DNA of 64,000 nucleotides from Escherichia phage Ec_Makalu_002. Where the stretch lies: sequence record MN709127.1, one strand, 5' to 3'. The position numbers and the translations under genes are program-made. Numbering within the stretch: position 1 is the stretch's first letter; every line of letters starts with the position of its first letter. Of the stretch, positions 2,849 through 60,185 are shown one piece after another. The notes under the pieces are model-generated. The model made no database searches. It was not told the origin of the DNA and saw only the letters and a list, made by a program, of their open reading frames with translations.

Positions 2849-3148
2849 TTAATCTTTTTTCAGTGCATCCATTACTCGCTCTGCAATCAGTTCTCTTAAG
2901 CACTGATAACCATGATATTTGATAGCAATGTCACGCAGATCATTAACCAGTTCCCGTACTTCATGGTCTTTCAAATCGTCTCTGTATTTCGATTTAACCG
3001 TGTCTTTAGGTGGATTGCGGATAACCTGAAAACCTTGTTCTGCAATCACTGCGGCTTCTCGCTGACGTTCATGCTGTACTGTATTTTTGATCAGGTCTGC
3101 TTCCATGAACTTTGCCATGCTCATCATCATGTTATTCTTTTTGCTCAT
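2849..3148 (-). CDS. hypothetical protein
   Basis: ORF track 2849..3184, but a promoter cassette lies inside its 5' end; internal ATG 3148 (MSKKNN...) has SD GAGGA. Confidence 0.45.
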   Translation of the reverse strand: MSKKNNMMMSMAKFMEADLIKNTVQHERQREAAVIAEQGFQVIRNPPKDTVKSKYRDDLKDHEVRELVNDLRDIAIKYHGYQCLRELIAERVMDALKKD

Positions 3149-3182
3149 TATTAAATCCTCATAAAAGAAAAGGGAGACTCCC

Positions 3183-3210
3183 ATTATAGAGAATCTCCCT
3201 TGTATGTCAA
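3183..3210 (-). promoter_or_regulatory. sigma70-like promoter (TTGACA-N16-TATAAT) overlapping palindrome GGGAGACTCCC
   Basis: minus-strand reading immediately downstream of topoisomerase stop. Confidence 0.5.
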
Positions 3211-3216
3211 GTGTTT

Positions 3217-5040
3217 TTAGCTACACATCCACTCTTTACGGCGGTCTGAATCTTCGCTATAGAGCAAATCGAATAGCTCTTTATAGTTTTCCGGTAACGT
3301 GATGATCTCCATGACAGGATCATTGATCACGCGATGATAATCTGATTCTGTAAGCGATGCTAACCCTTTGATATATCGAATGTTATAACCTTTGATATTA
3401 TCTCGGTCGTTCTCGAAATCTTCTAGGTCATAATACCATCGAACATCATCACCTTTCTTTGGTTCTGCAATGATAATAGGCGTTTTGATAAACCGGATTC
3501 GTCCATCTTCGAACAATTCAGGCCAACGTGCAAAGAAAGAGATCAGACTAGGCTTAATAGATCCGATCCCGTCAGTATCCGCGTCAGTCATAATCGCAAT
3601 ATTTTTGTATTGCATAACTTCCAATGCATCAACACCAAATTGCAAGCCAGTGATCGCCATGATGTTAAAAATTTCGGCATTCTTAACGATCTTTGCCTCC
3701 GGTTGTTCCCACGTTGTAAGAGTTTTACCTCGCAACGGGAAACCTCCATGTAAATCTTGATCACGTACAGAGATCAGATAGTTGATCGCGGAGTCACCCT
3801 CCGTCAGAAACAGGGTAGTTTCTGCGTCAGTTCCAATAAGGTTAGCTTTAACGTGTTTTGCTACCTTAGCCCGTTTTGCTGCCTTTGCTGCCTTAGTCGC
3901 TGCCGCTTTATCTGCTGCCTCTTTGCGTGCCAGGACTACAGCAATAATAGGCATGATAATGTTTTCTTTCTTAGCAATGACCTTAGCCAGCTTTTTAAAA
4001 TCAAGATCAATGTGACGCTTGATATCACCAGTCGGGTTAGTCAATCGCTCTTTTGTCTGTGAATCAAAGCGCAGGTTAGGCAATTCACGAACAATAAGAA
4101 TACAGGTCAAACCAGACTTAACCGCAGCTTTAGTAACATCAACCTTATATTCTTTCTTGATTCGTTTTACAATCTCTTCACAAAGATCATCTGTCACATA
4201 GTCTACGTGTGTTCCCCCGTTTTTGGTAAACAGACCATTAGCAAAGGATACAGATTTAAAACCTTCACCCTCAACCGCAGGAACTAGGGCAAGTGAAAAG
4301 TTTTTATCTTCAATGACAAACGGATCATCATTATAGAGTTTAGCATAGTCCTTGAACTTGCTAACAATACGTTTACCATTAAACTTAAACGTGATCTTAG
4401 GAAAGATTACGCTCAATGATTGCAGACGATCATGAACGATATCTAAAACAGAGTTGTCCATCATATAGCCTTCGAAGTGATCGAAGTCTGGACAAAATGT
4501 AACCTTTGTTCCTTTTAATTTTGATGGTTTTGATGACCATGTGATATTTTCAGCACCGTTGGTACATTGAACGGTCATTTCTGTTTCACCGTCACAGGTT
4601 ACACCAGTAAACCAATCGCTAAAGAAATTTGACAACGAAGATCCTACGCCGTTCATCCCTTGCGTTAATCGATTGGTATCATCAAAGTTAGATCCGGCTT
4701 TTGTTCTTGTCCATGCGGCGACTGGTTGCGGAATCTGCGTACCCTCTGGGGTAGTGACCATATGTTGAGGAATACCGCGACCATTGTCTGTTACCGTAAC
4801 AATATTGTTTTGGATATCGACGCTAATCACATTGGCAAATTCAAAATTAGTGCGGATCGCCTCATCTACAGAGTTGTCGATGATCTCATCAATGATTTTA
4901 ACCAGTCCAGGAACGTATGAAATTTTTGTCCACTTACCGAACAGGAAACGTTGATGTTCTTCGTAAGTAGTTGATCCTATGTACATTCCTGCACGCTTAA
5001 GGACATGTTCACGATCCGATAAAATGCGGAACTCACTCAT
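3217..5040 (-). CDS. 39: DNA topoisomerase II large subunit, gp39 with gp60 portion fused (GyrB-like)
   Basis: 607 aa; N-terminus MSEF..ILSD.EHV.KR.GMYIGS and DNGRGIP match T4 gp39 from memory; single continuous ORF. Confidence 0.85.
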   Translation of the reverse strand: MSEFRILSDREHVLKRAGMYIGSTTYEEHQRFLFGKWTKISYVPGLVKIIDEIIDNSVDEAIRTNFEFANVISVDIQNNIVTVTDNGRGIPQHMVTTPEGTQIPQPVAAWTRTKAGSNFDDTNRLTQGMNGVGSSLSNFFSDWFTGVTCDGETEMTVQCTNGAENITWSSKPSKLKGTKVTFCPDFDHFEGYMMDNSVLDIVHDRLQSLSVIFPKITFKFNGKRIVSKFKDYAKLYNDDPFVIEDKNFSLALVPAVEGEGFKSVSFANGLFTKNGGTHVDYVTDDLCEEIVKRIKKEYKVDVTKAAVKSGLTCILIVRELPNLRFDSQTKERLTNPTGDIKRHIDLDFKKLAKVIAKKENIIMPIIAVVLARKEAADKAAATKAAKAAKRAKVAKHVKANLIGTDAETTLFLTEGDSAINYLISVRDQDLHGGFPLRGKTLTTWEQPEAKIVKNAEIFNIMAITGLQFGVDALEVMQYKNIAIMTDADTDGIGSIKPSLISFFARWPELFEDGRIRFIKTPIIIAEPKKGDDVRWYYDLEDFENDRDNIKGYNIRYIKGLASLTESDYHRVINDPVMEIITLPENYKELFDLLYSEDSDRRKEWMCS

Positions 5041-7975: not shown

Positions 7976-8289
7976 TATCCTAAAATCCTCACCTTGCGAA
8001 CACAGATAGTATTGAGTTCTCGTCGTACCCGCTCTTTTTCATAGTCTGGAATTTTGTATTCTACACCATCCCGAACAATTTCAGAAGACCGGATTATACC
8101 AAATTTTCGTTTAGGCACAACCTTGTATTTCGGTTCACCTGCCAATAGACTCTCACAATAATCTATCTGATCACACATTGACGCTAACGCAGCATCATGT
8201 GTTTCGCAAGTTAGGACGCGACCCTTCGCGTCCACTGAGTATTGAAAGAATCCGTCTTTATCACGATAACATACAGCAAATACATGCAT
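7975..8289 (-). CDS. hypothetical protein (dda.1 position)
   Basis: 104-aa ORF; start overlaps upstream stop (TAATG). Confidence 0.5.
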   Translation of the reverse strand: MHVFAVCYRDKDGFFQYSVDAKGRVLTCETHDAALASMCDQIDYCESLLAGEPKYKVVPKRKFGIIRSSEIVRDGVEYKIPDYEKERVRRELNTICVRKVRILG

Positions 8290-9044
8290 TATAAACCTAC
8301 CTTCGCTTTCATCAATTCAATCCACGACGCATCAATCGGAAGCCCGTATTTCACGCGTTCTTTTTGTGCTGGCGTTAAGTTCTCATACTTAGAAAGAGAT
8401 TCAATCAAAACGCTGGTATATTTTAGCACGATTTCGGTATTGTTTGCAATAGCCTTAAGTTTTTCCTCTTTCTTGTTGATTTCGCTAAGGGCTTGCTTGA
8501 GATCTGCAATTTTCTGATAACGTTCTTCCATACGGAAGAGAGTGTTTTTAATTGCTTTCTCTGCTGCCTCGGCTTTCTCCGGTTCATTGTGCTTTTTGTG
8601 GCGTTCTATCGCTAATTTCTTTTCTTCAATAGCCATTTCCTGATTCTTGATGCGACTCTCGTTAAGTTCGATCCATTCGATGTACTTTGCACGCAGGGCG
8701 ATCTCATCATCAGAAAGTTTACCGTTAGTTCCTAGTTCCTGGATCTCTTTAAGAGATTCGATAGTGTGATTACCACGGAATGAATTGTATTTCAGTTTAA
8801 CCGGAATCACATTGCCATCAACATAGCCCAGATTGCAATCAATGCGCTCTAAGGAGAGTCCATCATCACCTTCACCGAACGCCTCACCTGAATATGCGCA
8901 ATGAGTCTGGCGATAGATGTTACGCACAGTGACTAAGCTCATAGAGAAGTCTTTGTTACGACGAGAAGCGCCAGCCATGATAGAGTTCAAACGGAAAACA
9001 ACCAGCGCCAATTCTTCGTTAGATTTAAAAGCAAACATTTTCAT
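8289..9044 (-). CDS. hypothetical protein, coiled-coil C-terminus (Srd position)
   Basis: 251 aa; sits between modA-like and dda as srd does in T4; call is positional only. Confidence 0.45.
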   Translation of the reverse strand: MKMFAFKSNEELALVVFRLNSIMAGASRRNKDFSMSLVTVRNIYRQTHCAYSGEAFGEGDDGLSLERIDCNLGYVDGNVIPVKLKYNSFRGNHTIESLKEIQELGTNGKLSDDEIALRAKYIEWIELNESRIKNQEMAIEEKKLAIERHKKHNEPEKAEAAEKAIKNTLFRMEERYQKIADLKQALSEINKKEEKLKAIANNTEIVLKYTSVLIESLSKYENLTPAQKERVKYGLPIDASWIELMKAKVGL

Positions 9045-12181: not shown

Positions 12182-12817
12182 TCAATCGAATGTAGAAAGC
12201 AATTGTTTTGTTTCTTTCAGTTGTCGTTCAAGATCTTTGCGTTTCTCTTTAAGTTGCATTTTAGCATTATTTCGCTCTCTTGTAACCTCTTTATCAATGC
12301 TCTTATTCCAGTTATCAATATCAGAATAAGTTGGCATACCCAATTCTAGACCTAATGCGGTTGGATACAGGGTAACGGTCCATAAACCTCTAATCTTCTT
12401 AAATAGGTCTGGGTGTAGTGTACTATCTACATCTTCCGGTGTCAACTCTTTTTCTTCTTTCAGTGGTGGGTTCTCGTCATATGGTTCTAGGGCATCTACT
12501 TTATTAGCGGATAGCTCATCAAAGAATCCTCGTACATCCGCAGGAAATACACAAGCAATTTCCCAACCGTGATCGCGCAGAGAAGTAATATTTTTCACTT
12601 CCCCGCCATGTGTGATAATTGACGTGACATTACCATCAAGATCCACCGAATTTACGAGAAATGGCTTATCGTCTGTCAGATCATTATAAAACTGTGCTTC
12701 GGCGGTAGTCATTTCCAGAAACAGATCCCGAATAGGGCGACCATCTGGTGCATTTCCTTCCTTGAGAGTATAAATTCGACTTACGATCCATTTTGGCGGT
12801 AAAGCATTAGCGATCAT
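12182..12817 (-). CDS. hypothetical protein
   Basis: 211-aa ORF; SD AGGAGAT. Confidence 0.5.
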   Translation of the reverse strand: MIANALPPKWIVSRIYTLKEGNAPDGRPIRDLFLEMTTAEAQFYNDLTDDKPFLVNSVDLDGNVTSIITHGGEVKNITSLRDHGWEIACVFPADVRGFFDELSANKVDALEPYDENPPLKEEKELTPEDVDSTLHPDLFKKIRGLWTVTLYPTALGLELGMPTYSDIDNWNKSIDKEVTRERNNAKMQLKEKRKDLERQLKETKQLLSTFD

Positions 12818-29669: not shown

Positions 29670-29928
29670 AAATCGCCCTCAGTTCTTTATAGCCTCCAAT
29701 GTGCTCGTTGTCAATGAATATCTGGGGGTATACAAACCGGAGGCTCTTTGAGTTCAGCCTCCCCGCCAGTTCTTCAATCATATCACGGTCGGGAATAATG
29801 TCAACCCCGACCTGCTTGAATACTGGTTTAAGTGTATACGGAATACCCAGATCATCCAGTAGCTTCATTGCACTAATACAACCATAACAATGATAAGCCT
29901 CTTTCGGTATGCCGTATATCTCGATCAT
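29659..29928 (-). CDS. glutaredoxin-like protein (NrdH/Grx)
   Basis: CYGC active site; 89 aa. Confidence 0.65.
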   Translation of the reverse strand: MIEIYGIPKEAYHCYGCISAMKLLDDLGIPYTLKPVFKQVGVDIIPDRDMIEELAGRLNSKSLRFVYPQIFIDNEHIGGYKELRAIYDY

Positions 29929-30431
29929 TTCTCAGCCTTTAATCTTTCCAGTTCTTCTTCCAGTTCCTTGATGCGCTTCTCGCGTTCAATATCACGTTGG
30001 ATCTTAGTGGCGAATACTCGTTTAAACTGATTATAGTCATCAATTTTAAATACTTCCTCTTCACCATATCGACGTACAGAAACTTCGTAGTTGTTAAAAA
30101 ATTGTTCCAACATTGCATCAGTGGTCAGTTCTGCCGATACCACTTTAAAATGACGTTCTTCTGATTGCAAAAACCAGTTGTGCGCGTACTCCCGTACATC
30201 ATCAACATTGCAGCAGGTGTACACCTTGCCATCAATTTCAATCACAGAAACATAATCCACATCCGATGCATGGTGATCAAATGCAATAACTTTAAATGGA
30301 CGGTCGCCGATAAACTCTGCTATTGCATCATTTGCAACGCTAAAGTTTGCAAAATCTTCTCTCGTTTTCTTATCTTTCCACTGATAGGTCACGCCAGCAA
30401 CAAACATATTACCATCCTCGCTCTTTACCAA
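29925..30431 (-). CDS. paralog-family protein (novel ~90-aa domain + coiled-coil tail)
   Basis: GVTYQWKD..DRPFKVIAFD..IEIDGKVY..W; C-terminal EREKRIKELEEELERLK. Confidence 0.5.
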   Translation of the reverse strand: MVKSEDGNMFVAGVTYQWKDKKTREDFANFSVANDAIAEFIGDRPFKVIAFDHHASDVDYVSVIEIDGKVYTCCNVDDVREYAHNWFLQSEERHFKVVSAELTTDAMLEQFFNNYEVSVRRYGEEEVFKIDDYNQFKRVFATKIQRDIEREKRIKELEEELERLKAEK

Positions 30432-31233
30432 TCAAAAATTCAACTTCACGACGGTTAATGTCTTCTTGAAGGTCTTTAATCTTCTGTCGATCTTGCATGA
30501 TTTCGTCCATCTTGTCAAGTGCTGTGATGAAATCATCGAAACGTTCAAAGGTTTTACCTTCATTTGCTTCGCCAAATTTAACCATTGTTAGGCCATAACG
30601 ACTACTAAACAGACGCTTCAATTGCCCAACGATCTTAGAATCAGTGGTTATAACTTCCAATTCTTCTACTTCTTGAAAGAATTTTCTATCAGAATCAATA
30701 AACCAGCTAGTTCCTTTATGGTCGCTATCTTCGGTTGCACTCATTAGAGTATGGTCTTTACCATCAATTTCAATTACATCAATTTGCCCACATGGACGAA
30801 CATTTTTAACAGTAAAAGGTCTATAATTTATTGCTCGTGCAATAACATAATTAAGATTAGATACGTTTTCAGCATAATGACAGAAGTCGGTCATAGCATT
30901 CGCATCTTTCCAAGTATAAGTTTTACCAACCTCCCATTTCTGGGGAACTTCTTCAACTTCACGAAAGAATTTTCTATCGAATGGACTAAAGAGATATGTT
31001 GCAGTCCAAATGTCTTTTCCTGTAGCAGTTTTCGCCGTATGCTCAACCCCATCGAGTTCTATTACATCAATCCAACCATTATCCTCGATCTCGATGATGG
31101 TAAATGGCTTGTCACCAATAGCTGCACTAATATCGCTGTTAAGTGGAGAAAGAACACCTTCACCGTTAGTAATAAACTCAGTTTTAGCTTTTTCATCTTT
31201 CCAAGTGTAAGTTTTACCAATTTCCCATTTCAT
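30409..31233 (-). CDS. paralog-family protein with two tandem copies of the domain
   Basis: MKWEIGKTYTWKD...DRKFFREVEE then QKWEVGKTYTWKD...DRKFFQEVEE. Confidence 0.5.
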   Translation of the reverse strand: MKWEIGKTYTWKDEKAKTEFITNGEGVLSPLNSDISAAIGDKPFTIIEIEDNGWIDVIELDGVEHTAKTATGKDIWTATYLFSPFDRKFFREVEEVPQKWEVGKTYTWKDANAMTDFCHYAENVSNLNYVIARAINYRPFTVKNVRPCGQIDVIEIDGKDHTLMSATEDSDHKGTSWFIDSDRKFFQEVEELEVITTDSKIVGQLKRLFSSRYGLTMVKFGEANEGKTFERFDDFITALDKMDEIMQDRQKIKDLQEDINRREVEFLIGKERGW

Positions 31234-31245
31234 AATATATTCCCC

Positions 31246-31746
31246 TTAACCGATTTTATCAAGTTCGTTTAATGCTTTCTCTGCTTCCTGTATAGCTTGC
31301 ACTCTTTCCGGCATTTTGTCAAGAAAATCTTTCAACTCTTCAAAACTGGAGATATGACGCAATGCATTAGCACCGATAGCCGCATGTGATTTGCATTCAA
31401 AGCGAATTTTATAATTATCCATCGCCAATTTGAGAAGATCAATTAGATCATGCTCATGACCAGGCAATAAAACTTCTTTGAAGCACGCTCGGTCGCCATC
31501 GGAAAACCATATATTATCACCAACATCGATAGAACTAATATAATCCCCTTCGTGATTATAGATTGAACGTACATTACCCCAACGGTCTACCGTAGCAACA
31601 ATAAATGGTTTATCGAGATATGTAAACATACCATCAATATTAGGTCTTCGTTCGTAACGCCAACAATCACGCAAAATACTCTTTTCGTATTCTCCACCCA
31701 ACTTATAGGTCTTACCTTCTTCCCATTTCATATTATCATCTCTCAT
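31246..31746 (-). CDS. paralog-family protein
   Basis: MKWEEGKTYK...DKPFIVATVD...DRACFKEV; helical tail. Confidence 0.5.
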   Translation of the reverse strand: MRDDNMKWEEGKTYKLGGEYEKSILRDCWRYERRPNIDGMFTYLDKPFIVATVDRWGNVRSIYNHEGDYISSIDVGDNIWFSDGDRACFKEVLLPGHEHDLIDLLKLAMDNYKIRFECKSHAAIGANALRHISSFEELKDFLDKMPERVQAIQEAEKALNELDKIG

Positions 31747-32272
31747 TTTTGATACGTGATTCTAATTGGATCATACGGTCGCGCGTTTGCTTGTATTCGC
31801 GGATAGCACCGATCCGGCTAGGCATACCATCCAGTACGCTCTTAATACCTTCTAGGGTAGTGATTTTAGCAATGCTATTGTGCAATCCTGTCTTATCGAT
31901 CAACTGAATGTCGTAGGCTTCCATAAGCAGACCCAGACGTTCTAAAGTTAGGTCTTCTTCTTTTTCTTCCGATTCTGGAATCTTAGGTTCAATAGTAACT
32001 TCGGTAAAGAAACGACGCTCACCCGACCAAAACCACACACCAGAACAACCAATAGGGGATTCTTTTAACGTCATAGAGTCGAAATTACTACCAATAATAG
32101 TAATTTCTCTAACATCACCATCATCGTCAAGGTCTTCTACCCTAAACGGGCGACCAGCCAACAAGTCAACAATACATCTGTTAATAGACGACGAAAATTT
32201 AGTCAGTTCGGCTTTCGACGCTTCGCATTCAATCTTGTAAGTTTTACCAACTTCCCATTCCATAATAATCAC
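31736..32272 (-). CDS. paralog-family protein
   Basis: MEWEVGKTYK...GRPFRVEDLD...ERRFFTEV; helical tail. Confidence 0.5.
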   Translation of the reverse strand: MIIMEWEVGKTYKIECEASKAELTKFSSSINRCIVDLLAGRPFRVEDLDDDGDVREITIIGSNFDSMTLKESPIGCSGVWFWSGERRFFTEVTIEPKIPESEEKEEDLTLERLGLLMEAYDIQLIDKTGLHNSIAKITTLEGIKSVLDGMPSRIGAIREYKQTRDRMIQLESRIKNER

Positions 32273-32994: not shown

Positions 32995-33546
32995 TTATTT
33001 AAATTTTTCGAGAGATTTCAACCACAGGCGGCCTGGTAGGTACTCTCCGGCAAACATGAAATTGTCATCTGGATAAGAACGCAGCATATTCAAAATAAAC
33101 TTCCGGCACTCTTCGTAATCTTTACGTTTAAGATAAATCACATTCTCGCCAGTACCGATCACACCTTTGCTGTATCCATGCTCTTTACGCACAGACCATT
33201 GTACAGTATCCTTTTTAACCCGAATCACAACAGGTTCCCAATACCCAGCGCATCCGGCTACACCACACGAACAGGTGAGGAAGTATTGACCTTTTGCTTT
33301 GTTTTCCTCCCACCCGATATTAACCGGATGCCATTCGTGAAACAAGGCTAAAGCATCGTGTGTCTCTTCGATCTGTTTATTGTCAATTCTTACCGTAACC
33401 ATCCATACAGGGATCTTATTTGTTGGTTCATCATCATAACATGAATCATCATCAATATGTTCTAATGTCATATCAACATTAATTGATTTTGCGTGTTCCA
33501 TGTGTCGTTGTGCTTTACGTTTACGGTTTAATGATTTCATAGTCAC
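32995..33546 (-). CDS. hypothetical protein
   Basis: 183-aa ORF between nrdD and nrdG. Confidence 0.5.
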   Translation of the reverse strand: MTMKSLNRKRKAQRHMEHAKSINVDMTLEHIDDDSCYDDEPTNKIPVWMVTVRIDNKQIEETHDALALFHEWHPVNIGWEENKAKGQYFLTCSCGVAGCAGYWEPVVIRVKKDTVQWSVRKEHGYSKGVIGTGENVIYLKRKDYEECRKFILNMLRSYPDDNFMFAGEYLPGRLWLKSLEKFK

Positions 33547-33557
33547 CTCACATTATT

Positions 33558-34100
33558 TCAAAGATCGCGATATTGTACATTATGAAAGTGAGAACTTGCA
33601 TTACCAATATTGTAGATAATAAATTCTTCATCCGGCGCTTGCGCTACAAATTGAGTATGAGCAACCGCCACAACCTTAAAAATACGATCCGTGATCTTGT
33701 GTTTAATTTCGGCTCCTACTTCCATAGGAACATATTCATGTGTTTCTGTTTCAGTCGCAAAAAAGCCATCTTCTTCATAAGCACGAACAAATCGATCGCA
33801 ATCAGTACGCTTAACAAATTCAAGAGTATACAATTCTCGTGAATTGTCGGTATATACCAATACAGAATTATTCTGATAGCGAATCACATACAGGTTATTA
33901 TCATCGTCAATTACGCAAAAGCTACGGATTTGTGTTCCTTCTCCTTTACTCCAGCAGATATTAACTACCGTTCCTCTAATAAAAAAACTTTCCTTTAAAT
34001 TAAAACTAGCCAATGTGCTAGCGTGCATTTTAACAACAACACCATCACCAATTTCCAGTTTACGAAGTTTAACTTCTTTGCTCAGTACACAAAACATCAT
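33558..34100 (-). CDS. hypothetical protein
   Basis: 180-aa ORF; SD GAGAGGA. Confidence 0.5.
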   Translation of the reverse strand: MMFCVLSKEVKLRKLEIGDGVVVKMHASTLASFNLKESFFIRGTVVNICWSKGEGTQIRSFCVIDDDNNLYVIRYQNNSVLVYTDNSRELYTLEFVKRTDCDRFVRAYEEDGFFATETETHEYVPMEVGAEIKHKITDRIFKVVAVAHTQFVAQAPDEEFIIYNIGNASSHFHNVQYRDL

Positions 34101-36079: not shown

Positions 36080-36105
36080 TGAAAAAGCGGGATTTTCTCC
36101 CGCTC
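36080..36105 (-). terminator. hairpin AGCGGGA..TCCCGCT plus T-run immediately upstream of nrdD
   Basis: minus strand GAGCGGGAGAAAATCCCGCTTTTTC. Confidence 0.5.
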
Positions 36106-36113
36106 GTTGATAG

Positions 36114-36608
36114 TTATTTTACCAGTTCTGCTAATTCTTTTTCTTTAGCTTCCAGTTCAGCCTTAAGCTGTTTAATCTCTTGTCGCTTCTTATTAGCGGC
36201 TTCCTGCTTACTATTTCGGATAATCTGATCTAGATACAACTCCCAATCCTGAATATTTTTGATAATATAACCGTCAACATTAATTGGTTGGATATTTAGT
36301 ACAGCTTCCAGTTTAGTCGCAAAAACTTTAATTGCTGGGGTGAAGTATTCATATTCGTTATCTTCAAACCAATAACCTAGACTTGCATTATCAATACGAA
36401 GACGAAGTTCAAGATCAAGGTCTTTATCTTCGGTGTATAGGTCTTTTACACCCCCCATCGAACCAACAACAACTTTAAAACGAATTTTATCAACACCACC
36501 AAACACATCAGTAAGGATACCAGCAATTGAACTATTAGCGCAAGATTGGTCGCTGAATGCGTCAAGGTTTTCTTTAGTTACAGTATACCAAACATCTTGT
36601 ACCCACAT
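36114..36608 (-). CDS. hypothetical protein with coiled-coil tail
   Basis: 164 aa; C-terminal KKRQEIKQLKAELEAKEKELAELVK like the paralog-family tails. Confidence 0.45.
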   Translation of the reverse strand: MWVQDVWYTVTKENLDAFSDQSCANSSIAGILTDVFGGVDKIRFKVVVGSMGGVKDLYTEDKDLDLELRLRIDNASLGYWFEDNEYEYFTPAIKVFATKLEAVLNIQPINVDGYIIKNIQDWELYLDQIIRNSKQEAANKKRQEIKQLKAELEAKEKELAELVK

Positions 36609-36638
36609 AATATAATCCTCTCGTTGTTAAGTGGGAGT

Positions 36639-36666
36639 ATTATAGCATACTCCCTTCGCATGTCAA
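36639..36666 (-). promoter_or_regulatory. sigma70-like promoter (TTGACA-N16-TATAAT), hairpin GGGAGTAT..ATACTCCC
   Basis: minus-strand reading. Confidence 0.5.
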
Positions 36667-37841
36667 GCACGAACTTTTTTCTTTACTGCTTTCACCTTCT
36701 GGCGAATTGCTCGAATCGCTTCGATCTCTTTTTCAGTCTCTTTAACAATTTCTTTGCGATTCTGAATATCTGTATCGAGATTATCATCAAGTTTAGGCAG
36801 CACGTCAATCAAGAACTTTTTAAAGTCTTTCAGGTTTCGGATAACCGCACCTTCACCCATTACCGCCACCCCTACACCATCCGGCAGATCACCAAACAGC
36901 TTAACCAGTTCAGATAGATGATCATGATCCTCTAGTGCTTCTTCCGGTTCAGATGGCAGTTCAACAAAGTTATAACGTTCATCATTGCTGATCAGATGAT
37001 ACCAGCAAAGCCCGAAAGATTTAGGAGTATATTCTACACCATCAACTTCAACCGCGTCAACACTTCCGAAAGGATCTACTTTAGTTACCTTAAATCCATG
37101 TTCCAGCTTTTGAACAATTTCAATAACATGGCTGGATACGGTTTCAGTGTTAAACCAATGAGGCAAATTATGCTGATTTGGCTTGTAGCGTTCGCCTACT
37201 TTAAATCGCTGACCTTCCGCTTGCATAGAATGAAATTGATGGTTGGTGATTTCCGCGAAGTATTCAAATTCGCCACCGTCAAACACACAAGCCCATTGAT
37301 CACAAAAACGATCTGCCTTAACGGTTTCACCTTTCGCGGTGATCATGGTAGCTGATCCGTGCAATTCTTCTTCAACCAAAAAGCCATATTCGACAAAATC
37401 AGCAAGTTTCATGGCTTCTTTGTGTTCTGGGTCATGCTCTCCCCAGAATCGCTTAAATTCTTGCAAACCTTCTGGGGTAAACGAATAACATTTACCTTTT
37501 TCAAAGTAAGTCGGCATTGCATCCTCTTTCTTGTTCATCGCTTCGTATGCCTCTTTTGAGATACGTTTAAAGTATTTGCGCTCATTGTGCATAATCATAG
37601 TAGACCAATAATAAACGATATCCTCAGCGGAATAAACTACATCTCCAGCTTCAATAGTAATAACATGACCGTGGTCATCTTTTTCTAATACTTTAAAGCC
37701 CTTTTCTACGATTTCAGCAACTCGAATATGACCACGGCGCGAAGCATCGGTCAGAATAATTGAATAGCGAGAAAAGTCTAGAAACTCATCTTTACCGCCT
37801 TCACGGAATGCATAGTAATGACCTTCAAAGAATTTAGCCAT
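36663..37841 (-). CDS. paralog-family protein with three tandem domain copies
   Basis: 392 aa; GHYYAF..GFKVLEKDDHGHV..NERKYFKRI; KGKCYSF..; KVGERYK..GFKVTKVDPFG..ERYNFVEL. Confidence 0.5.
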   Translation of the reverse strand: MAKFFEGHYYAFREGGKDEFLDFSRYSIILTDASRRGHIRVAEIVEKGFKVLEKDDHGHVITIEAGDVVYSAEDIVYYWSTMIMHNERKYFKRISKEAYEAMNKKEDAMPTYFEKGKCYSFTPEGLQEFKRFWGEHDPEHKEAMKLADFVEYGFLVEEELHGSATMITAKGETVKADRFCDQWACVFDGGEFEYFAEITNHQFHSMQAEGQRFKVGERYKPNQHNLPHWFNTETVSSHVIEIVQKLEHGFKVTKVDPFGSVDAVEVDGVEYTPKSFGLCWYHLISNDERYNFVELPSEPEEALEDHDHLSELVKLFGDLPDGVGVAVMGEGAVIRNLKDFKKFLIDVLPKLDDNLDTDIQNRKEIVKETEKEIEAIRAIRQKVKAVKKKVRA

Positions 37842-37872
37842 AATATAATCCTCTCGTTGTTTAGATGGGAGT

Positions 37873-37901
37873 ATCTTACTACTCCCGTTTCATCATGTCA
37901 A
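37873..37901 (-). promoter_or_regulatory. sigma70-like promoter (TTGACA-N17-TAAGAT), hairpin GGGAGTA..TACTCCC
   Basis: minus-strand reading. Confidence 0.45.
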
Positions 37902-38464
37902 GCGTTAAATGACTTTTTAATCTCTTTCAGTTCTTCCACTTTCTCGGCGCTGAATTTAGCGTAGGTATCATGTCGAATAATTTCACTTTCAAGAAAGGTT
38001 TCCAGTCGAGATCTATTTTCAATAAGGAACTCTTTCAGGTCTTCCGCGTTCTTGACAAAGATTTTATTGTCGGTAATGTCATCTTCAATCGCAAAGGAGA
38101 TAGAGCGAACTTTACCAAACAAGTTAATCAGATCTTCCAGAGATTCTTCTTTCTTAACTGGCTTCATTTCTTCAAACTGCTTTTTAGTGATGCGTTTAAA
38201 GTATTTGCGCTCGTTTGCAGCAATCAGAACAGATGCACCTTCATACCCATGAGTTTCTACCAGATACACACGCCCCATCGCATCAACAGTGAGAACTTTA
38301 AAGCCGTTACAAAGCACGTCATACAAGAACTTATTATGTTGCGGACATCGTTTGATAAATTCTGCGGCTGTTTCTGCACTACGGAAAGTGTAATAACGAC
38401 CTCGTTCAAAAACAGCATCATTTGAAGACTTAGCCGGATACAATTTATACGTTTTCTGTACCAT
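37898..38464 (-). CDS. paralog-family protein
   Basis: GFKVLTVDAMGRVYLVE..NERKYFKRI; start moved to ATG 38464 with SD GAGGATTATATT. Confidence 0.5.
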   Translation of the reverse strand: MVQKTYKLYPAKSSNDAVFERGRYYTFRSAETAAEFIKRCPQHNKFLYDVLCNGFKVLTVDAMGRVYLVETHGYEGASVLIAANERKYFKRITKKQFEEMKPVKKEESLEDLINLFGKVRSISFAIEDDITDNKIFVKNAEDLKEFLIENRSRLETFLESEIIRHDTYAKFSAEKVEELKEIKKSFNA

Positions 38465-38490
38465 AATATAATCCTCTATCATTTCACTAA

Positions 38491-38751
38491 TTAAACAGCA
38501 CGGAACAGAATGCGCTCACACGGAAGCAGCATAAATTCCCAACGCGGGTCAAAGTCTTTAGCGGTGTATGTTTTCCCATCAACCGCTATTTCACTTACAT
38601 AACCAACAGGTGACACTTTAAGAACAGTAAACCCATTCTTGATGACTTCGTAGGTATCTTTCACCCCTTCGTATTCATCATCTAAGAAGTCTTTATGTGC
38701 TTGCTCAGATTTAAAAACATAGGCCACACCGGATTTAAACATCTTACGCAT
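38491..38751 (-). CDS. paralog-family protein (single domain)
   Basis: GVAYVFKS..GFTVLKVSPVGYV..VDGKTY..W; start ATG 38751 with SD AAGGAGAA. Confidence 0.45.
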   Translation of the reverse strand: MRKMFKSGVAYVFKSEQAHKDFLDDEYEGVKDTYEVIKNGFTVLKVSPVGYVSEIAVDGKTYTAKDFDPRWEFMLLPCERILFRAV

Positions 38752-38782
38752 TGTTGATTCTCCTTCTTGATTAGATGGGAGT

Positions 38783-38811
38783 ATTTTACTACTCCCATTT
38801 CTTATTGTCAA
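38783..38811 (-). promoter_or_regulatory. sigma70-like promoter (TTGACA-N17-TAAAAT)
   Basis: minus-strand reading. Confidence 0.5.
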
Positions 38812-39312: not shown

Positions 39313-39594
39313 TTAACCATTAATCTTGTTTTTGACTACAAAGGATCGGAACTCATCAAAGCCACCGATATAATCACCATTATAGAAAATCTGCGGCATG
39401 GTGGCAATAACTTCTACCCCTGCGCGATCCTGAATATCGGCAATGATAGAATCAATCTTTACAGGGCGACCGTTTTCGTCCACACCATCATTAACAGGAA
39501 TATAGATGTAAGGGATCTTGCGCGATTCACAAAGGCGCTTTGCGTTCTGGCAATACTTACAGTTGTAACCTTCAAAACCAAAAATTTCTACCAT
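39313..39594 (-). CDS. nrdC: thioredoxin/glutaredoxin NrdC-like
   Basis: CKYC active site, NAKRL, MPQIF..GGFDEF resemble T4 NrdC; ATG 39594. Confidence 0.7.
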   Translation of the reverse strand: MVEIFGFEGYNCKYCQNAKRLCESRKIPYIYIPVNDGVDENGRPVKIDSIIADIQDRAGVEVIATMPQIFYNGDYIGGFDEFRSFVVKNKING

Positions 39595-39602
39595 GTTATA
39601 CC

Positions 39603-40415
39603 TCAATCTACGTTAGTTACATAAACTTCTTGTGTATCAGAAGACTTGCCACCTGAACGATCTAGACAATAGGTCTTATTCAACAGGACGCAGTTTAAAT
39701 CATTCCGCTTGATAAAGTCAATAAGATGGTTATTGACCTTTCCCTTATGATGCGTGACATTACTGATACCAAACTGAACACCACGCGCCATAATAGATTC
39801 TACCCACCGATAGAATTTAATCTCTTCCTCATCACCCCAGAACTTATTATATTCAGCAGAAGTGATAAGGTACGGCGGGTCCAAATAAACAAAATCACCG
39901 GGCAAGATCTCGATCTCGTCATACCGTCCAGAAGTAAACTTGATTCGACCGTCTTTGGTTTCTTCCTTAAAATTCAAGACACGCTCTACCGCATTTTCGT
40001 TAAAAGTCCGGCGACCAAAGTTAGCATTAAATTCGCCCTTCCGGTTATGGCGGTTAATGTTGCTAAAACTATGCTGAATCAACACAAACAGCGATAGCGG
40101 ATCTGGATTCTCATTATACTTCTTACGGAATGCCATGTAAGCATCTTTATCATCACGAGACAAACCATTCTCGGAAATAATCCGCTTGATCGTAGAAACC
40201 GGGTCAGGACACGCATCAATGGCCTTGTAAGCGTCAATTAAACGATGGTCGTAGTCATTAGCCAGTACATCACCTTCAACATACAGAGACACGCTCAAGC
40301 CACCGCAAAAGGCATCAACAAAGCGGTTGTAGTGCTTAGGGAAATACTTACTAACACCAGGCAATAACTTTTCCTTATTGCCAGTATAGGGAATTAAACC
40401 TAATGCTTTCTTCAT
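39603..40415 (-). CDS. dam: DNA adenine methyltransferase Dam
   Basis: YTGNK, FVD.FCGGLSVSL and DPPY motifs resemble T4 Dam. Confidence 0.8.
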   Translation of the reverse strand: MKKALGLIPYTGNKEKLLPGVSKYFPKHYNRFVDAFCGGLSVSLYVEGDVLANDYDHRLIDAYKAIDACPDPVSTIKRIISENGLSRDDKDAYMAFRKKYNENPDPLSLFVLIQHSFSNINRHNRKGEFNANFGRRTFNENAVERVLNFKEETKDGRIKFTSGRYDEIEILPGDFVYLDPPYLITSAEYNKFWGDEEEIKFYRWVESIMARGVQFGISNVTHHKGKVNNHLIDFIKRNDLNCVLLNKTYCLDRSGGKSSDTQEVYVTNVD

Positions 40416-55845: not shown

Positions 55846-56184
55846 TCACACCTTCAAAGTCATAGACGCATAAACATTAATATCAGGCCAGTTAGGATCG
55901 CAATTATACTCAACATCCCACAAATAAAGCGGTTTAGATGTATCAGCCAGGTTTTTAAAATCTTCTACCCACATTTCAAGGCTATATGAAGGATAAACTA
56001 GGCTATCATACCCGCCGTAACGTTGGCCTACTGGTCGGTCAGTAAAGACTACCTCAAGATCCGGCAATTCTTTTTCTAGGATAACAGCCAGCGCATAAAT
56101 CAGGCGGTCTTCCTTGTTACGCTGCCGTAGGACCGTTGTTAGTTGGTTCTTCTGGTTCACTAGCAAGTACCTCCACATTTTCAC
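55846..56184 (-). CDS. hypothetical protein (possible 3' part of a frameshifted gene)
   Basis: 112-aa ORF overlapping 56117..56437 by 68 nt. Confidence 0.4.
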   Translation of the reverse strand: MKMWRYLLVNQKNQLTTVLRQRNKEDRLIYALAVILEKELPDLEVVFTDRPVGQRYGGYDSLVYPSYSLEMWVEDFKNLADTSKPLYLWDVEYNCDPNWPDINVYASMTLKV

Positions 56185-56437
56185 AGAATGAAATTTTCAC
56201 AGACACAATTTTACCATAAGTGAAGAATGAATATACATTATCGAGATATTCAACGTCACCTACAATCACATCAAACTGCGGGTCAGCCACTGCCGCAACA
56301 TATTCTACCAGTTCATCAAGAGAATGCAACTTAATTTCATCAATTCGGCTATATTTGGTTGCATCTTTAATTTTAAAACCACGTTCTTTCAGCTTGTCAA
56401 TCAGAATTTCGCGCGGAGTTTCAAACAGTTTGCTCAT
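56117..56437 (-). CDS. hypothetical protein (possible 5' part of a frameshifted gene)
   Basis: 106-aa ORF; low-complexity tail EPEEPTNNGPTAA in overlap; SD GAGGATTATATT. Confidence 0.4.
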   Translation of the reverse strand: MSKLFETPREILIDKLKERGFKIKDATKYSRIDEIKLHSLDELVEYVAAVADPQFDVIVGDVEYLDNVYSFFTYGKIVSVKISFCENVEVLASEPEEPTNNGPTAA

Positions 56438-56455
56438 AATATAATCCTCACACAG

Positions 56456-59701: not shown

Positions 59702-59733
59702 TTTGATTCTCCTTTCGTTTGTTTGTTGGGGGT

Positions 59734-59762
59734 ATCTTACTACCCCCGTTTCATGTTGTCAA
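59734..59762 (-). promoter_or_regulatory. sigma70-like promoter (TTGACA-N17-TAAGAT), hairpin GGGGGTA..TACCCCC
   Basis: minus-strand reading. Confidence 0.45.
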
Positions 59763-59768
59763 CTGTTT

Positions 59769-60146
59769 TTAAGAAAATTTTACTTCGTCTACAATGTCTT
59801 TCATGACATTGATTTCCATTCCGGTCAGAACACGTTGGAACATGTGCTGCACATACGCTTTCAGGTATTCATTTGATGGCTTGCTATCAAAAGTCTTTTT
59901 AGTGTAGTAGTCATCACCGAAAGCTACTGTAATTACATTTTCGTCGTCGTTCCAGGCAATATAAGCAAATTTGCCGTTATCCCAGAATCGAGCACTAATT
60001 GCTACTTTCGTTGAATCGAATCCTACTTCGCTGTGAGATTCAAGAACTACTTGCGTGCCAGTTTCTTTATGAATGTAGTAGCGGGATACTAAGTCAAAGT
60101 TACGGGTGTAGTGACATTCGAATTTATCTTTAAACATCATCATCAT
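59769..60146 (-). CDS. hypothetical protein
   Basis: 125-aa ORF. Confidence 0.5.
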   Translation of the reverse strand: MMMMFKDKFECHYTRNFDLVSRYYIHKETGTQVVLESHSEVGFDSTKVAISARFWDNGKFAYIAWNDDENVITVAFGDDYYTKKTFDSKPSNEYLKAYVQHMFQRVLTGMEINVMKDIVDEVKFS

Positions 60147-60185
60147 TTTTTGATTCTCCTAAGTGTGTTTCGTTTCGATGTGTGC

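Follow-up and report, generated by a model that had tools for sequence, protein, structure and literature searches.

Paralog arrays with predicted GoF/Frd.2/MotB.1-type barrels flank the nrdG-nrdD genes of a Krischvirus coliphage

[quoted passage not shown] 2025, PMC12152347). For GoF and MotB.1, both a monomer and a dimer were observed, and GoF reaches about 20,000 copies per cell (PMC12152347). AF3 gave no confident multimers or ring for GoF (ipTM <0.3), and wild-type GoF and MotB.1 had no RNA effect; the sole functional datum is that GoF(D25Y) stabilizes the gene 41 leader mRNA (PMC12152347). Ever since the genetic work on rho/nusD suppressors, GoF has been a puzzle in T4, and the 2025 paper that defined the family assigned it no wild-type function (PMC12152347). 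RB49, Krischvirus, tandem domains and paralog arrays are all absent from that paper. In a genome-wide knock-down screen, T4 frd.2 alone among the genes that affected fitness had no known function (PMC11879866). In RB49 and phi1, promoter-early stem-loop (PeSL) cassettes have been described (Arbiol et al. 2010, PMC2839356; Comeau et al. 2014, PMC4122927).

Here, a 64,000-nt stretch of Escherichia phage Ec_Makalu_002 (MN709127.1), referred to as the window, was analyzed. Krischvirus genomes show 99.6 to 99.7% DNA identity to the window, which places its phage, as judged by sequence, among the Krischvirus, RB49-like T4-type coliphages. A previous sequence-only reading had proposed that a second paralog array lies on the other side of nrdD from the genes at 29925-32272, with "about ten" domain copies bracketing nrdG-nrdD. 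The count is 11. Array A (four genes, 36114-38751) holds six barrel copies according to MAFFT alignment and HMMs, and array B (four genes, 29925-32272, between nrdG and nrdH) holds five, with all array genes on the minus strand (Table 1). With a twelfth copy located elsewhere, the total is 12 barrels in nine genes across the window and the 63-162 kb part of a 99.6%-identical genome. Overall, the locus is probably best explained as an expanded array of this T4 family, which would have arisen by ancient local duplication and domain fusion and whose products would bind proteins.

Table 1. Family genes, predicted domains and regulatory elements, in window positions
Feature	Coordinates	Strand	Description
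Array A gene, RB49ORF060c	38491-38751	-	86 aa; lone GoF/Frd.2-type barrel, without C-terminal domain or tail
Array A gene, RB49ORF059c	37898-38464	-	188 aa; barrel ~38171-38419, small C-terminal domain, helical tail
Array A gene, RB49 "frd.2"	36663-37841	-	392 aa; three tandem barrels, one C-terminal domain, ~55-residue helix
Barrels of 36663-37841	37542-37841, 37230-37517, 36939-37214	-	residues 1-100, 109-204, 210-301
C-terminal domain and helix of 36663-37841	36666-36938	-	
Array A gene, RB49ORF057c	36114-36608	-	164 aa; barrel 36324-36608, C-terminal domain, heptad-patterned tail
Array B genes	31736-32263, 31246-31731, 30409-31233, 29925-30407	-	1+1+2+1 barrels; HMM matches, PHROG 5347
Twelfth copy	12182-12817	-	211 aa, same architecture; between helicase gene 41 and primase gene 61
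PeSL cassette, 5' of 38491-38751	38777-38811	-	-35 TTGACA 38806-38811; -10 TAAAAT 38783-38788
PeSL cassette, 5' of 36663-37841	37867-37901	-	-35 37896-37901; -10 37873-37878; hairpin 37867-37886
PeSL cassette, 5' of 36114-36608	36633-36666	-	-35 36661-36666; -10 TATAAT 36639-36644; hairpin 36633-36654
Intrinsic terminator, end of array A before nrdD	36082-36103	-	GCGGGA...TCCCGC then TTTTT

The three tandem copies in 36663-37841 and the single copies in 37898-38464 and 38491-38751 that had been named from the sequence were all recovered by MAFFT and HMMs, and the motifs listed with them are conserved columns of the 12-copy alignment (G-x-x-Y, [GP]-F-x-V, G-x-V..I and [DE]-R-x-[YF]-F). Y12, F43 and F85 are invariant in 12 of 12 copies. 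Reciprocal profiles and shuffles established the homology of the two arrays. A profile built from array B only detected the array A genes with E values of 5.5e-10 to 7e-3 among 634 window ORFs, and one built from array A only detected the array B genes with E values of 2.9e-14 to 3.9e-5. Cross-array scores (12.6-33 bits) were above every shuffle (maximum 11.8; 300 shuffles per domain), with the single exception of repeat 2 of 36663-37841 against the array B profile (4.0 bits, 2/300 shuffles); the similarity is therefore not compositional, an outcome that the sequence-only reading had named as a possible refutation. The agreement extends to the C-terminal part, beyond what had been claimed for a shared architecture: among the eight genes aligned, a helix, a short hairpin, an "F-x-x-x-L-D" helix and a charged helix correspond across both arrays, and every array B gene carries the same C-terminal domain and tail in this alignment.

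The idea that the repeats are an artefact of mere composition or of short beta-hairpin motifs, without homology, draws on a few large Ig-like/fibronectin repeat proteins. These reach their profile scores by way of many partial matches of ~30 aa, which show some profile affinity for generic hairpins. Against it stand the full length of the matches between the arrays and their margin over the shuffles, the three invariant core residues, the aligned C-terminal domains and the independent recovery of GoF and Frd.2. Its probability is practically nil, and it is already refuted by the cross-array profiles, the hold-out profile and the shuffles.

The strength of detection varied among the copies. The lone barrel 38491-38751, whose start was taken from the GEC-3S and RB49 annotations, gave HMM domain matches of 1.3e-17 to 5e-28 and 3.2e-9 with the array B-only profile. 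The gene 36663-37841 gave three HMM domains of ~1e-26 each, and a profile that left out its repeats 1 and 2 still detected them at 9e-17 and 3.6e-10. The barrel of 36114-36608 is the most divergent copy and the weakest (leave-one-out E of 8e-4), with 3.1e-26 under a broader profile (A2); the protein matches PHROG 3710, which is common to other members. This copy lies within the region covered by the sequence-only reading and is absent from its text. The twelfth copy was recovered at 2.2e-8 by a profile built without it and at 6e-9 in a second search. It has the same size and position as T4 gp61.2, yet it shows neither similarity nor an HMM match to that protein, and orthology was therefore dropped. 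Four further window ORFs with E values of 0.03 to 0.4 (56120-56455, 59772-60158, 7978-8316 and 2852-3220) were rejected as members; they were without support from the broader profile and belong to other PHROGs.

The domain had been treated as unknown, which did not survive the profile comparisons: all four array A genes belong to the GoF/Frd.2/MotB.1 family of T4 (PMC12152347). A window-only profile detected T4 GoF (residues 3-92) at 9e-12, Frd.2 (residues 2-90) at 6.5e-5 and MotB.1 at 0.09, and the corresponding values with profile A2 were 6e-25, 3.5e-16 and 1.4e-8. Among 1.84 billion proteins, the window-only profile also found a GoF ortholog (P0088, 65% identical) at 1.3e-6. The window proteins match PHROGs 8944, 5347, 16115 and 15067 at 1e-55 to 1e-209 and cross-match PHROGs 622, 3710 and 13003; PHROGs 8944, 13003 and 2980 are annotated as "goF mRNA metabolism modulator", and 37898-38464 matches PHROG 8944 ("goF") at 1.7e-97. 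In GenBank records, two of the four array A genes are labeled "frd.2" or "goF". PHROGs divide this one family into many clusters, mostly labeled "unknown function". PF03197 (FRD2) gave no match at E<=1 in the eight array proteins scanned and was matched by 9 of 84 relatives at E<=0.1 (best 4.1e-5). PADLOC and NCBIfam searches gave nothing meaningful. The profile unites nine "hypothetical" or inconsistently labeled Krischvirus genes and ~90 metagenome protein clusters as one family whose members Pfam and PHROGs at present split or miss. Several candidate relatives were discarded as spurious because their scores came from many short partial matches: P0057, P0063 and P0102 (Big_2, fn3 or repetitive surface proteins), P0104 (weak DUF matches only), and P0103, P0106, P0114 and P0117. 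A tblastn search with one domain as the query returned only 58 Krischvirus records and is too insensitive for a census.

Like the T4 proteins, the window proteins have a homologous N-terminal barrel of ~85-90 residues with a predicted five-strand topology and FeoA/SloR-type structural neighbors, as reported for GoF (PMC12152347), followed by a linker and a small C-terminal domain (except in 38491-38751). They are also acidic and encoded in early regions of T4-type phages. The signature G-F-x-V is common to array A and Frd.2, and P-F-x-[VI] is common to GoF, array B and the twelfth copy. In contrast to the three scattered single-barrel genes of T4, however, the 12 window barrels are spread over nine genes that are clustered in arrays around nrdD-nrdG, and they include two-barrel and three-barrel fusions and one bare barrel. 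In addition, the C-terminal helix is extended into a charged tail of 25-55 residues that GoF and Frd.2 do not have. Apparently unreported are the expansion to 12 domains in nine genes, versus three in T4, the fusion of two or three barrels in one protein, and the repeated occurrence of arrays of this kind beside nrdD in other T4-like lineages.

Structure prediction, which the sequence-only reading had recommended, was performed with AF2. Residues 208-392 of the 36663-37841 protein gave a model with an overall pLDDT of 83, whereas a single-sequence run on the whole 392-aa protein was unusable (pLDDT 39). Strands were placed at 11-14, 43-48, 54-59, 62-64 and 85-88, with a pLDDT of ~90 over the barrel (blocks 72-96). 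The domain (~90-95 aa) is thus modeled as an SH3/LSm-like beta-barrel of five strands, in which two helices separate strands 1 and 2. After a flexible linker (pLDDT <50 at model residues 93-99), the model continues with a helix, a hairpin and a long helix, so that all proteins but one are predicted to end in a small helix-hairpin-helix C-terminal domain that leads into a charged helix. It had been stated that all genes end in coiled-coil tails. Of the nine family genes, eight encode a charged C-terminal helix, and five tails reached p<0.06 (0.018 for 36114-36608) in a crude heptad test, but the test failed in three of eight and 38491-38751 stops after the domain. Coiled-coil formation is suggested only by one predicted long helix and this crude test.

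FeoA accounted for five of the best eight PDB Foldseek matches, with FeoA chains at ranks 1, 4, 6 and 8 (E 0.13-0.6, target TM 0.32-0.53), although even the best match (E 0.13, probability 0.80) is non-significant. SloR/ScaR SH3-like domains and KOW followed in the list, and the closest solved structures were 6e55, 2k5l, 7r7b, 2k5f, 3hrt and 5cvi (E 0.13-1.6, non-significant). As in the FeoA-type SH3-like domains (FeoA; the C-terminal domains of the DtxR-family regulators SloR, ScaR and IdeR), a small barrel carries helices after strand 1. Unlike FeoA, the window proteins are phage encoded, have an extra C-terminal domain and are without the metal-binding histidines or a sequence match; Pfam FeoA (PF04023) matched none of the eight array proteins or 84 relatives. 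In canonical Sm/LSm/Hfq proteins the helix is N-terminal, in contrast to the placement between strands 1 and 2 here, and no Hfq/Sm protein was among the best 50 Foldseek PDB matches. A PDB sequence match to 4qxz_A (E 0.005) is a weak lead without support in the Foldseek list.

In T4, gene 49 adjoins nrdD, and nrdG, 55.8 and nrdH are adjacent; relative to this order, the arrays are insertions. Both sites are hyperplastic spots punctuated by PeSL promoter/stem-loop cassettes. Each gene had been credited with a promoter cassette of its own, which holds for 38491-38751, 36663-37841 and 36114-36608, with sigma-70 promoters that match the consensus at 10 to 12 of 12 positions. It does not hold for 37898-38464, whose 26-nt upstream gap contains no promoter of its own, or within array B, where genes overlap or abut and no internal cassette was found. 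The cassette upstream of 38491-38751 (promoter scan 11/12) has a hairpin, GGGAGTA/TACTCCC at 38777-38796, that overlaps the -10 element (-13.8 kcal/mol, z -4.3). In the other two, the TGA stop of the upstream gene lies inside the -35 element; their hairpins fold at -11.9 kcal/mol (37867-37901) and -14.5 kcal/mol (36633-36666; z -3.6, promoter scan 12/12 with TG). All elements of a PeSL are present, namely an upstream stop, consensus -35 and -10 elements, a stem-loop overlapping the -10, a Shine-Dalgarno sequence and a start codon, and the embedding of the upstream TGA in the TTGACA -35 of two cassettes makes no essential difference from the class. From the promoter consensus only, array A would be transcribed early. 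The terminator that closes array A (-13.8 kcal/mol, z -5.1) is also present in the GEC-3S annotation.

Pairwise identity between copies is 13-51%, and the copies are old. Layout and gene sizes are identical in RB49, GEC-3S, JK32 and the window, the same layout is kept by all Krischvirus genomes examined, and all nine family genes are intact. Family genes have dN/dS values of 0.06-0.43, versus 0-0.09 in conserved neighbors (nrdD, nrdG, nrdC and endoVII; one nrdH comparison gave 0.27 from only two substitutions), and the diversifying selection that had been suggested for testing was not seen gene-wide. Some family genes are only 64-70% identical between isolates (dS 0.6-1.1, background ~0.1), which suggests that divergent alleles have replaced one another at these loci among isolates of Krischvirus. 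The arrays would thus be upheld by purifying selection with occasional replacement of a gene. Whether the genes are instead largely dispensable cargo, duplicated and shuffled by PeSL cassettes and persisting without a distinct function for each copy, has to be weighed here. Cassettes flank three of the four array A genes, PeSL-bounded ORFans are excised as circles in RB49 and phi1 (PMC2839356), T4 family members are non-essential in the laboratory, and divergent alleles have been exchanged. Yet the intact genes, the constant layout and the dN/dS of every gene well below 1 all speak against it, the copies are far too diverged for recent PeSL-driven duplicates, array B has no internal PeSL, and T4 frd.2 affected fitness in the CRISPRi-ART screen (PMC11879866). 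We regard cargo as quite improbable. Less probable still is a role for the products as partners of the anaerobic RNR or of iron supply, in which FeoA-like modules would, under anoxia, aid either the Fe-S dependent activation of the reductase or the uptake of ferrous iron. Among solved structures, FeoA proteins rank as the nearest neighbors, and in Krischvirus as well as three other lineages (L013, L011 and L008), family arrays adjoin nrdD, nrdG or nrdH. [quoted passage not shown] Plasticity is known for both the 49-nrdD and the nrdG-nrdH junction (PMC2839356), and therefore a shared position can be inherited rather than functional.

FeoA-type SH3-like domains are protein-interaction modules. 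Together with the acidity of the proteins (pI 4.7-5.8 and net charge -1 to -19 in eight of nine), these closest solved folds count in favor of protein binding, as do the dimers of GoF and MotB.1, the abundance of GoF and the lack of an RNA effect of the wild-type proteins (PMC12152347), and acidic, oligomeric protein-binding modules are favored over direct RNA binding, although no binding partner or phenotype has been reported in the literature for wild-type family members. The family proteins would be abundant early binding modules, mostly acidic, in which tandem barrels and self-associating helical tails provide multivalency; during takeover, the protein bound, of host or phage origin, would differ from paralog to paralog. 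RNA-metabolism factors such as Rho or the degradosome are plausible targets, and the effect of GoF(D25Y) on mRNA stability would therefore be indirect. This mechanism as a whole is put forward tentatively. The stabilization of the 41 leader by GoF(D25Y) is equally compatible with direct RNA binding, in which LSm-like RNA chaperones would stabilize particular phage mRNAs and paralogs would cover different transcripts. With GoF(D25Y), a reporter RNA gains a longer half-life through a post-transcriptional effect, and the barrel contains both GoF suppressor sites (PMC12152347). The alignment shows that both suppressor changes give GoF residue states that are common among paralogs: the D25 column is F/Y in 5 of 12 window copies and 17 of 85 family members, the G84 column is K/R in 6 of 12 and 29 of 86, and both states occur in four copies (36663-37841 repeat 1, 29925, 30409 repeat 2 and 31736). 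Moreover, 37898-38464, the sole basic member (pI 8.35), has a basic barrel (pI 9.3). Nevertheless, the pI of 11 of the 12 barrels is acidic or near-neutral (4.3-6.0), the structural matches and the helix placement are not those of Sm proteins, wild-type GoF and MotB.1 were without effect in the same assay, and no confident ring model was obtained (PMC12152347). Direct RNA binding is thus considered rather unlikely.

Beyond the favored protein-binding modules, a bolder possibility, which we hold to be unlikely, is that the arrays form a diversified multivalent toolkit: paralogs with the aromatic D25 and K/R G84 columns would natively stabilize mRNAs of the phage or inhibit a host factor, be it Rho or one of RNA decay or defense, and expansion and allele swapping would reflect a host arms race. 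If GoF gain-of-function states are indeed native here, the 40-year-old goF phenotype would acquire a wild-type function. The twelve diverged natural copies offer fresh material in the form of proteins with one, two or three barrels and of a bare barrel, with tailed and tailless forms and the residues of the GoF suppressor mutations among them.

The start of 37898-38464 was fixed because the ribosome binding site GAGGATTATATTATG lies at 38462-38476. This motif had been described as common to the array genes, and it does occur exactly before three of the four array A genes. Window-wide, it was found eight times exactly and 14 times with <=2 mismatches, mostly before unrelated genes, and is generic in this phage.

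Eleven segments of about 95 residues were cut from array A (four genes) and array B (four genes) and aligned. All of them have in common W/F-x-x-G-x-x-Y, a conserved first-helix F, [GP]-F-x-V, G-x-V..I, and [DE]-R-x-[YF]-F. When the resulting profile was applied, the triple gene (36663-37841) proved to hold three domains and 30409-31233 two, with a single domain in each of the remaining six; gene 12182-12817, which was absent from the training set, was matched at 2.2e-8. A profile of array B only matched every array A gene (E values of 5.5e-10 to 7e-3 among 634 ORFs), and a profile of array A only matched every array B gene (2.9e-14 to 3.9e-5). Cross-array scores ranged from 12.6 to 33 bits, compared with a shuffle maximum of 11.8 (300 shuffles per domain). 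Repeat 2 of the triple gene, scored with the array B profile, was the sole exception, and it was matched at 3.6e-10 by a later profile built without repeats 1 and 2. Thus, the similarity between the arrays is real and not compositional, and the homology of array A to the family at 29925-32272, proposed in the sequence-only reading, was borne out. The "about ten copies" that it placed on both sides of nrdG-nrdD amount to 11, of which array A contributes six and array B five; the copy in 36114-36608 was missing from its list.

Positions of the barrel-coding genes and of the recurrent 15-mer in the window
Feature	Position	Strand	Counterpart or family	Context
Array A	38491-38751, 37898-38464, 36663-37841, 36114-36608	-	RB49 ORF060c, ORF059c, "frd.2", ORF057c	flanked by gene 49 (endonuclease VII) and nrdD
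Array B	four genes within 29925-32272	-	RB49 ORF051c-048c	between nrdG and nrdH
Twelfth copy	12182-12817	-	PHROG 16187	211-aa protein; gene flanked by helicase gene 41 and primase gene 61
GAGGATTATATTATG, exact copies	2116, 14592, 36606, 37839, 38462, 41971, 44665, 56435	-		36606, 37839, and 38462 in array A

All array genes lie on the minus strand. The array A region was 99.6 to 99.7% identical to those of the Krischvirus genomes Ec_Makalu_003, SSG23, and SFHK24 and ~95% identical to that of RB49, and the gene order and sizes were unchanged in RB49, GEC-3S, and JK32. The twelfth-copy gene encodes a barrel, C-terminal domain, and tail as in the array genes. Its size and position equal those of T4 gp61.2, but the proteins are unrelated, and orthology was rejected. 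In GEC-3S, dam and nrdC are separated by an HNH homing endonuclease gene (L001 11483-12238), which neither the window (39603-40415 / 39313-39606) nor RB49 has.

A Pfam scan of the array proteins gave no match. With PHROG, the array genes were placed in clusters 8944, 5347, 16115, and 15067, with cross-matches to 622, 3710, 13003, and 2980, and three of these clusters carry the label "goF mRNA metabolism modulator." Two of the four array A genes are already labeled goF or frd.2 in GenBank. A profile of the window copies only matched T4 GoF (residues 3-92) at 9e-12, T4 Frd.2 (residues 2-90) at 6.5e-5, and, marginally, T4 MotB.1 at 0.09. Against 1.84 billion representative proteins, it retrieved only 98 clusters at an E value of ≤1e-3, among them a GoF ortholog (65% identical) at 1.3e-6. 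With a profile of 84 diverse members, the matches reached 6e-25 for GoF, 3.5e-16 for Frd.2, and 1.4e-8 for MotB.1. The GoF family was described by Kim et al. 2025 (PMC12152347), and the GoF/Frd.2/MotB.1 family, its fold, and the promoter cassettes are already published. In the literature, we found no description of an expansion to 12 barrels, of two- and three-barrel fusion proteins, of a common C-terminal module whose helical tail is extended, of arrays recurring beside nrdD in several lineages, or of GoF suppressor residues matching natural paralog variation. The arrays are added members and architectures of a known family and are of value chiefly for working out what GoF and Frd.2 do.

Residues 208-392 of the triple gene were modeled by AF2 with the 84-sequence alignment (pLDDT 83). 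The predicted barrel has strands at 11-14, 43-48, 54-59, 62-64, and 85-88 (model numbering), with two helices inserted between its first and second strands. C-terminal to the barrel come a disordered linker (93-99), a helix, a hairpin, and a further helix of 55 residues. A Foldseek search of the PDB gave no significant match (best E value, 0.13); ranks 1, 4, 6, and 8 went to FeoA chains, with SloR, ScaR, and KOW domains further down. Against viral models, there were 55 matches at an E value of ≤1e-3; among the best 50 of these, 33 were named, all as uncharacterized proteins (one merely "Dc2"). The source phages, which also included phAPEC8-type phages among the best 50, we take to be mostly T4-like (Aeromonas, Proteus, Citrobacter, Serratia, and Acinetobacter hosts). 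The nearest solved relatives reported for the GoF fold are FeoA-type SH3-like domains and Hfq (PMC12152347). PDB entry 4qxz_A ("uncharacterized protein") had a weak sequence match to the 84-sequence profile (E value, 0.005; 107 residues over the barrel and C-terminal part), which may be due to chance, since the entry was not within the top 50 Foldseek matches.

Exactly 12 copies in nine genes, all within the window, were found when the window and 63-162 kb of the near-identical Ec_Makalu_003 were scanned. GoF and MotB.1 were the only members in T4 at 1-56 kb, where gene 49 directly adjoins nrdD and where 55.8 and then nrdH come after nrdG. Of T4 at 56-169 kb, the scan covered two short windows at 143-148.5 kb, and in the one around frd the proteins scored were Frd.1-Frd.3; the reported T4 total, including Frd.2, is three members (PMC12152347). 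Pairwise identity was 13 to 38% in array A, 19 to 51% in array B, and 15 to 29% between the arrays, so that the duplications are old. In Nei-Gojobori comparisons of the window with RB49, GEC-3S, and JK32, dN/dS was 0.06 to 0.43 for the family genes, 0 to 0.09 for the annotated, conserved neighbors nrdD, nrdG, nrdC, and endoVII, and 0.27 for nrdH in one comparison, resting on only two substitutions. Gene-wide positive selection of the family genes was not seen against these three phages, and the diversifying selection suggested earlier for testing found no support at that level. Several family genes are divergent alleles, with protein identity of 64 to 72% and dS of 0.5 to 1.1 against a background dS of ~0.1. 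Divergence was mosaic, at 33558-34100, 36114-36608, 31246-31731, 29925-30407, and 30409-31233, and the divergent genes differed from phage to phage: 36114 and 33558 were ~60 to 64% identical to JK32 only, and 29925 was ~70% identical to all three. The pattern is one of relaxed purifying selection with mosaic allele replacement, and the mosaicism among Krischvirus isolates is consistent with cassette exchange. Outside the barrel family, the 183-aa ORF 32995-33546 (minus strand), between nrdD and nrdG, was 49 to 50% identical to its counterparts in the same three phages (dS, 1.2 to 1.6), and nrdD and nrdG beside it were ~99% identical, which marks an allele replacement inside the reductase cluster itself.

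Similar arrangements were found in other lineages. A T4-like metagenomic contig (L013) has the synteny dam-nrdC-endoVII-[three members]-nrdD-nrdG, and its three members, with one barrel each, occupy the array A position. A two-barrel protein lies directly before nrdH, the array B position, in L011, and another, in L012, occupies the T4 goF position, beside a 39.2-like zinc ribbon. In a 71-kb contig (Logan SRR14300940_297; L008 5920-11569), five genes in a row, each with two or three barrels, hold at least 11 copies, directly upstream of a SegE/endoVII-dimerization ORF and an nrdD that homing endonucleases have split; blastn of this array against the phage collection gave no match. Therefore, Krischvirus is not alone in having multi-barrel proteins and arrays near nrdD, and both are recurrent.

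The statement that all genes end in coiled-coil tails needs qualification: eight genes have a charged terminal helix, but 38491-38751 stops at the domain, and a simple heptad a/d test against shuffles gave P values of 0.01 to 0.06 in five tails and >0.3 in three. Likewise, promoter cassettes precede 38491, 36663, and 36114 but not 37898, and the array B genes overlap or abut, so that not every gene has its own. The three sigma-70-type promoters (10 to 12 of 12 consensus matches) have in common TTGACA, a spacer, and GGGAGTA-(-10)-TACTCCC, and the -10 is thus enclosed in a 7- to 9-bp hairpin (-11.9 to -14.5 kcal/mol). This is the published promoter-early stem-loop (PeSL) element of RB49/phi1 (PMC2839356). 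In two of the three cassettes, the TGA stop of the upstream gene is embedded in the -35 hexamer. The ribosome-binding site described as shared, GAGGATTATATTATG, is a 15-mer of Shine-Dalgarno, fixed spacer, and ATG; it is exact at three array A sites but window-wide mostly precedes unrelated genes (8 exact copies and six with 1 or 2 mismatches, 14 in all with ≤2, every one on the minus strand; chance expectation, ~0.3). It seems to be the 3' end of a common regulatory cassette. Promoter-hairpin variants with G/C-run stems (GGGGGTAGTAAnATACCCCC) at 52051-52070 and 59728-59747 (minus strand) are additional PeSL-type cassettes of the window.

As to function, we lean tentatively toward the family proteins being protein-binding modules, in which case tandem barrels and helical tails would confer multivalency. 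Counted for this reading were the acidity of eight of the nine proteins (pI 4.7 to 5.8) and the closest folds, FeoA-type SH3-like barrels, as non-significant matches. FeoA-type SH3-like barrels act as protein-interaction modules. GoF and MotB.1 migrate partly as dimers, and the wild-type proteins have no effect on an RNA reporter (PMC12152347). Direct RNA binding by the barrels appears rather unlikely. In its favor, GoF(D25Y) affects mRNA stability (PMC12152347), and one member is basic. The N-E-R-K-Y-F motif aligns with N-E-A-G84-F-F of GoF, and therefore the suppressor sites G84R and D25Y fall in two well-aligned columns. Both substitutions recreate residue states common among the paralogs, the D25 column being F/Y in 5 and the G84 column K/R in 6 of the 12 window copies.

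A link to the reductase or to iron is very improbable. We attribute the array position to inheritance within a hyperplastic region and not to a functional link to the reductase, because neither the twelfth copy nor the members in T4 sit near nrdD, the 49-nrdD region is known to be plastic (PMC2839356), and a good intrinsic terminator (36082-36103) lies between array A and nrdD. It is also improbable that the genes are dispensable PeSL cargo. Of the T4 fitness genes in a CRISPRi-ART screen (PMC11879866), frd.2 (3144-3530 in L004, the T4 frd locus) alone had no known function, whereas an frd.2 amber mutant plates normally (PMC12152347); polarity on frd/td or condition dependence could account for this discrepancy.
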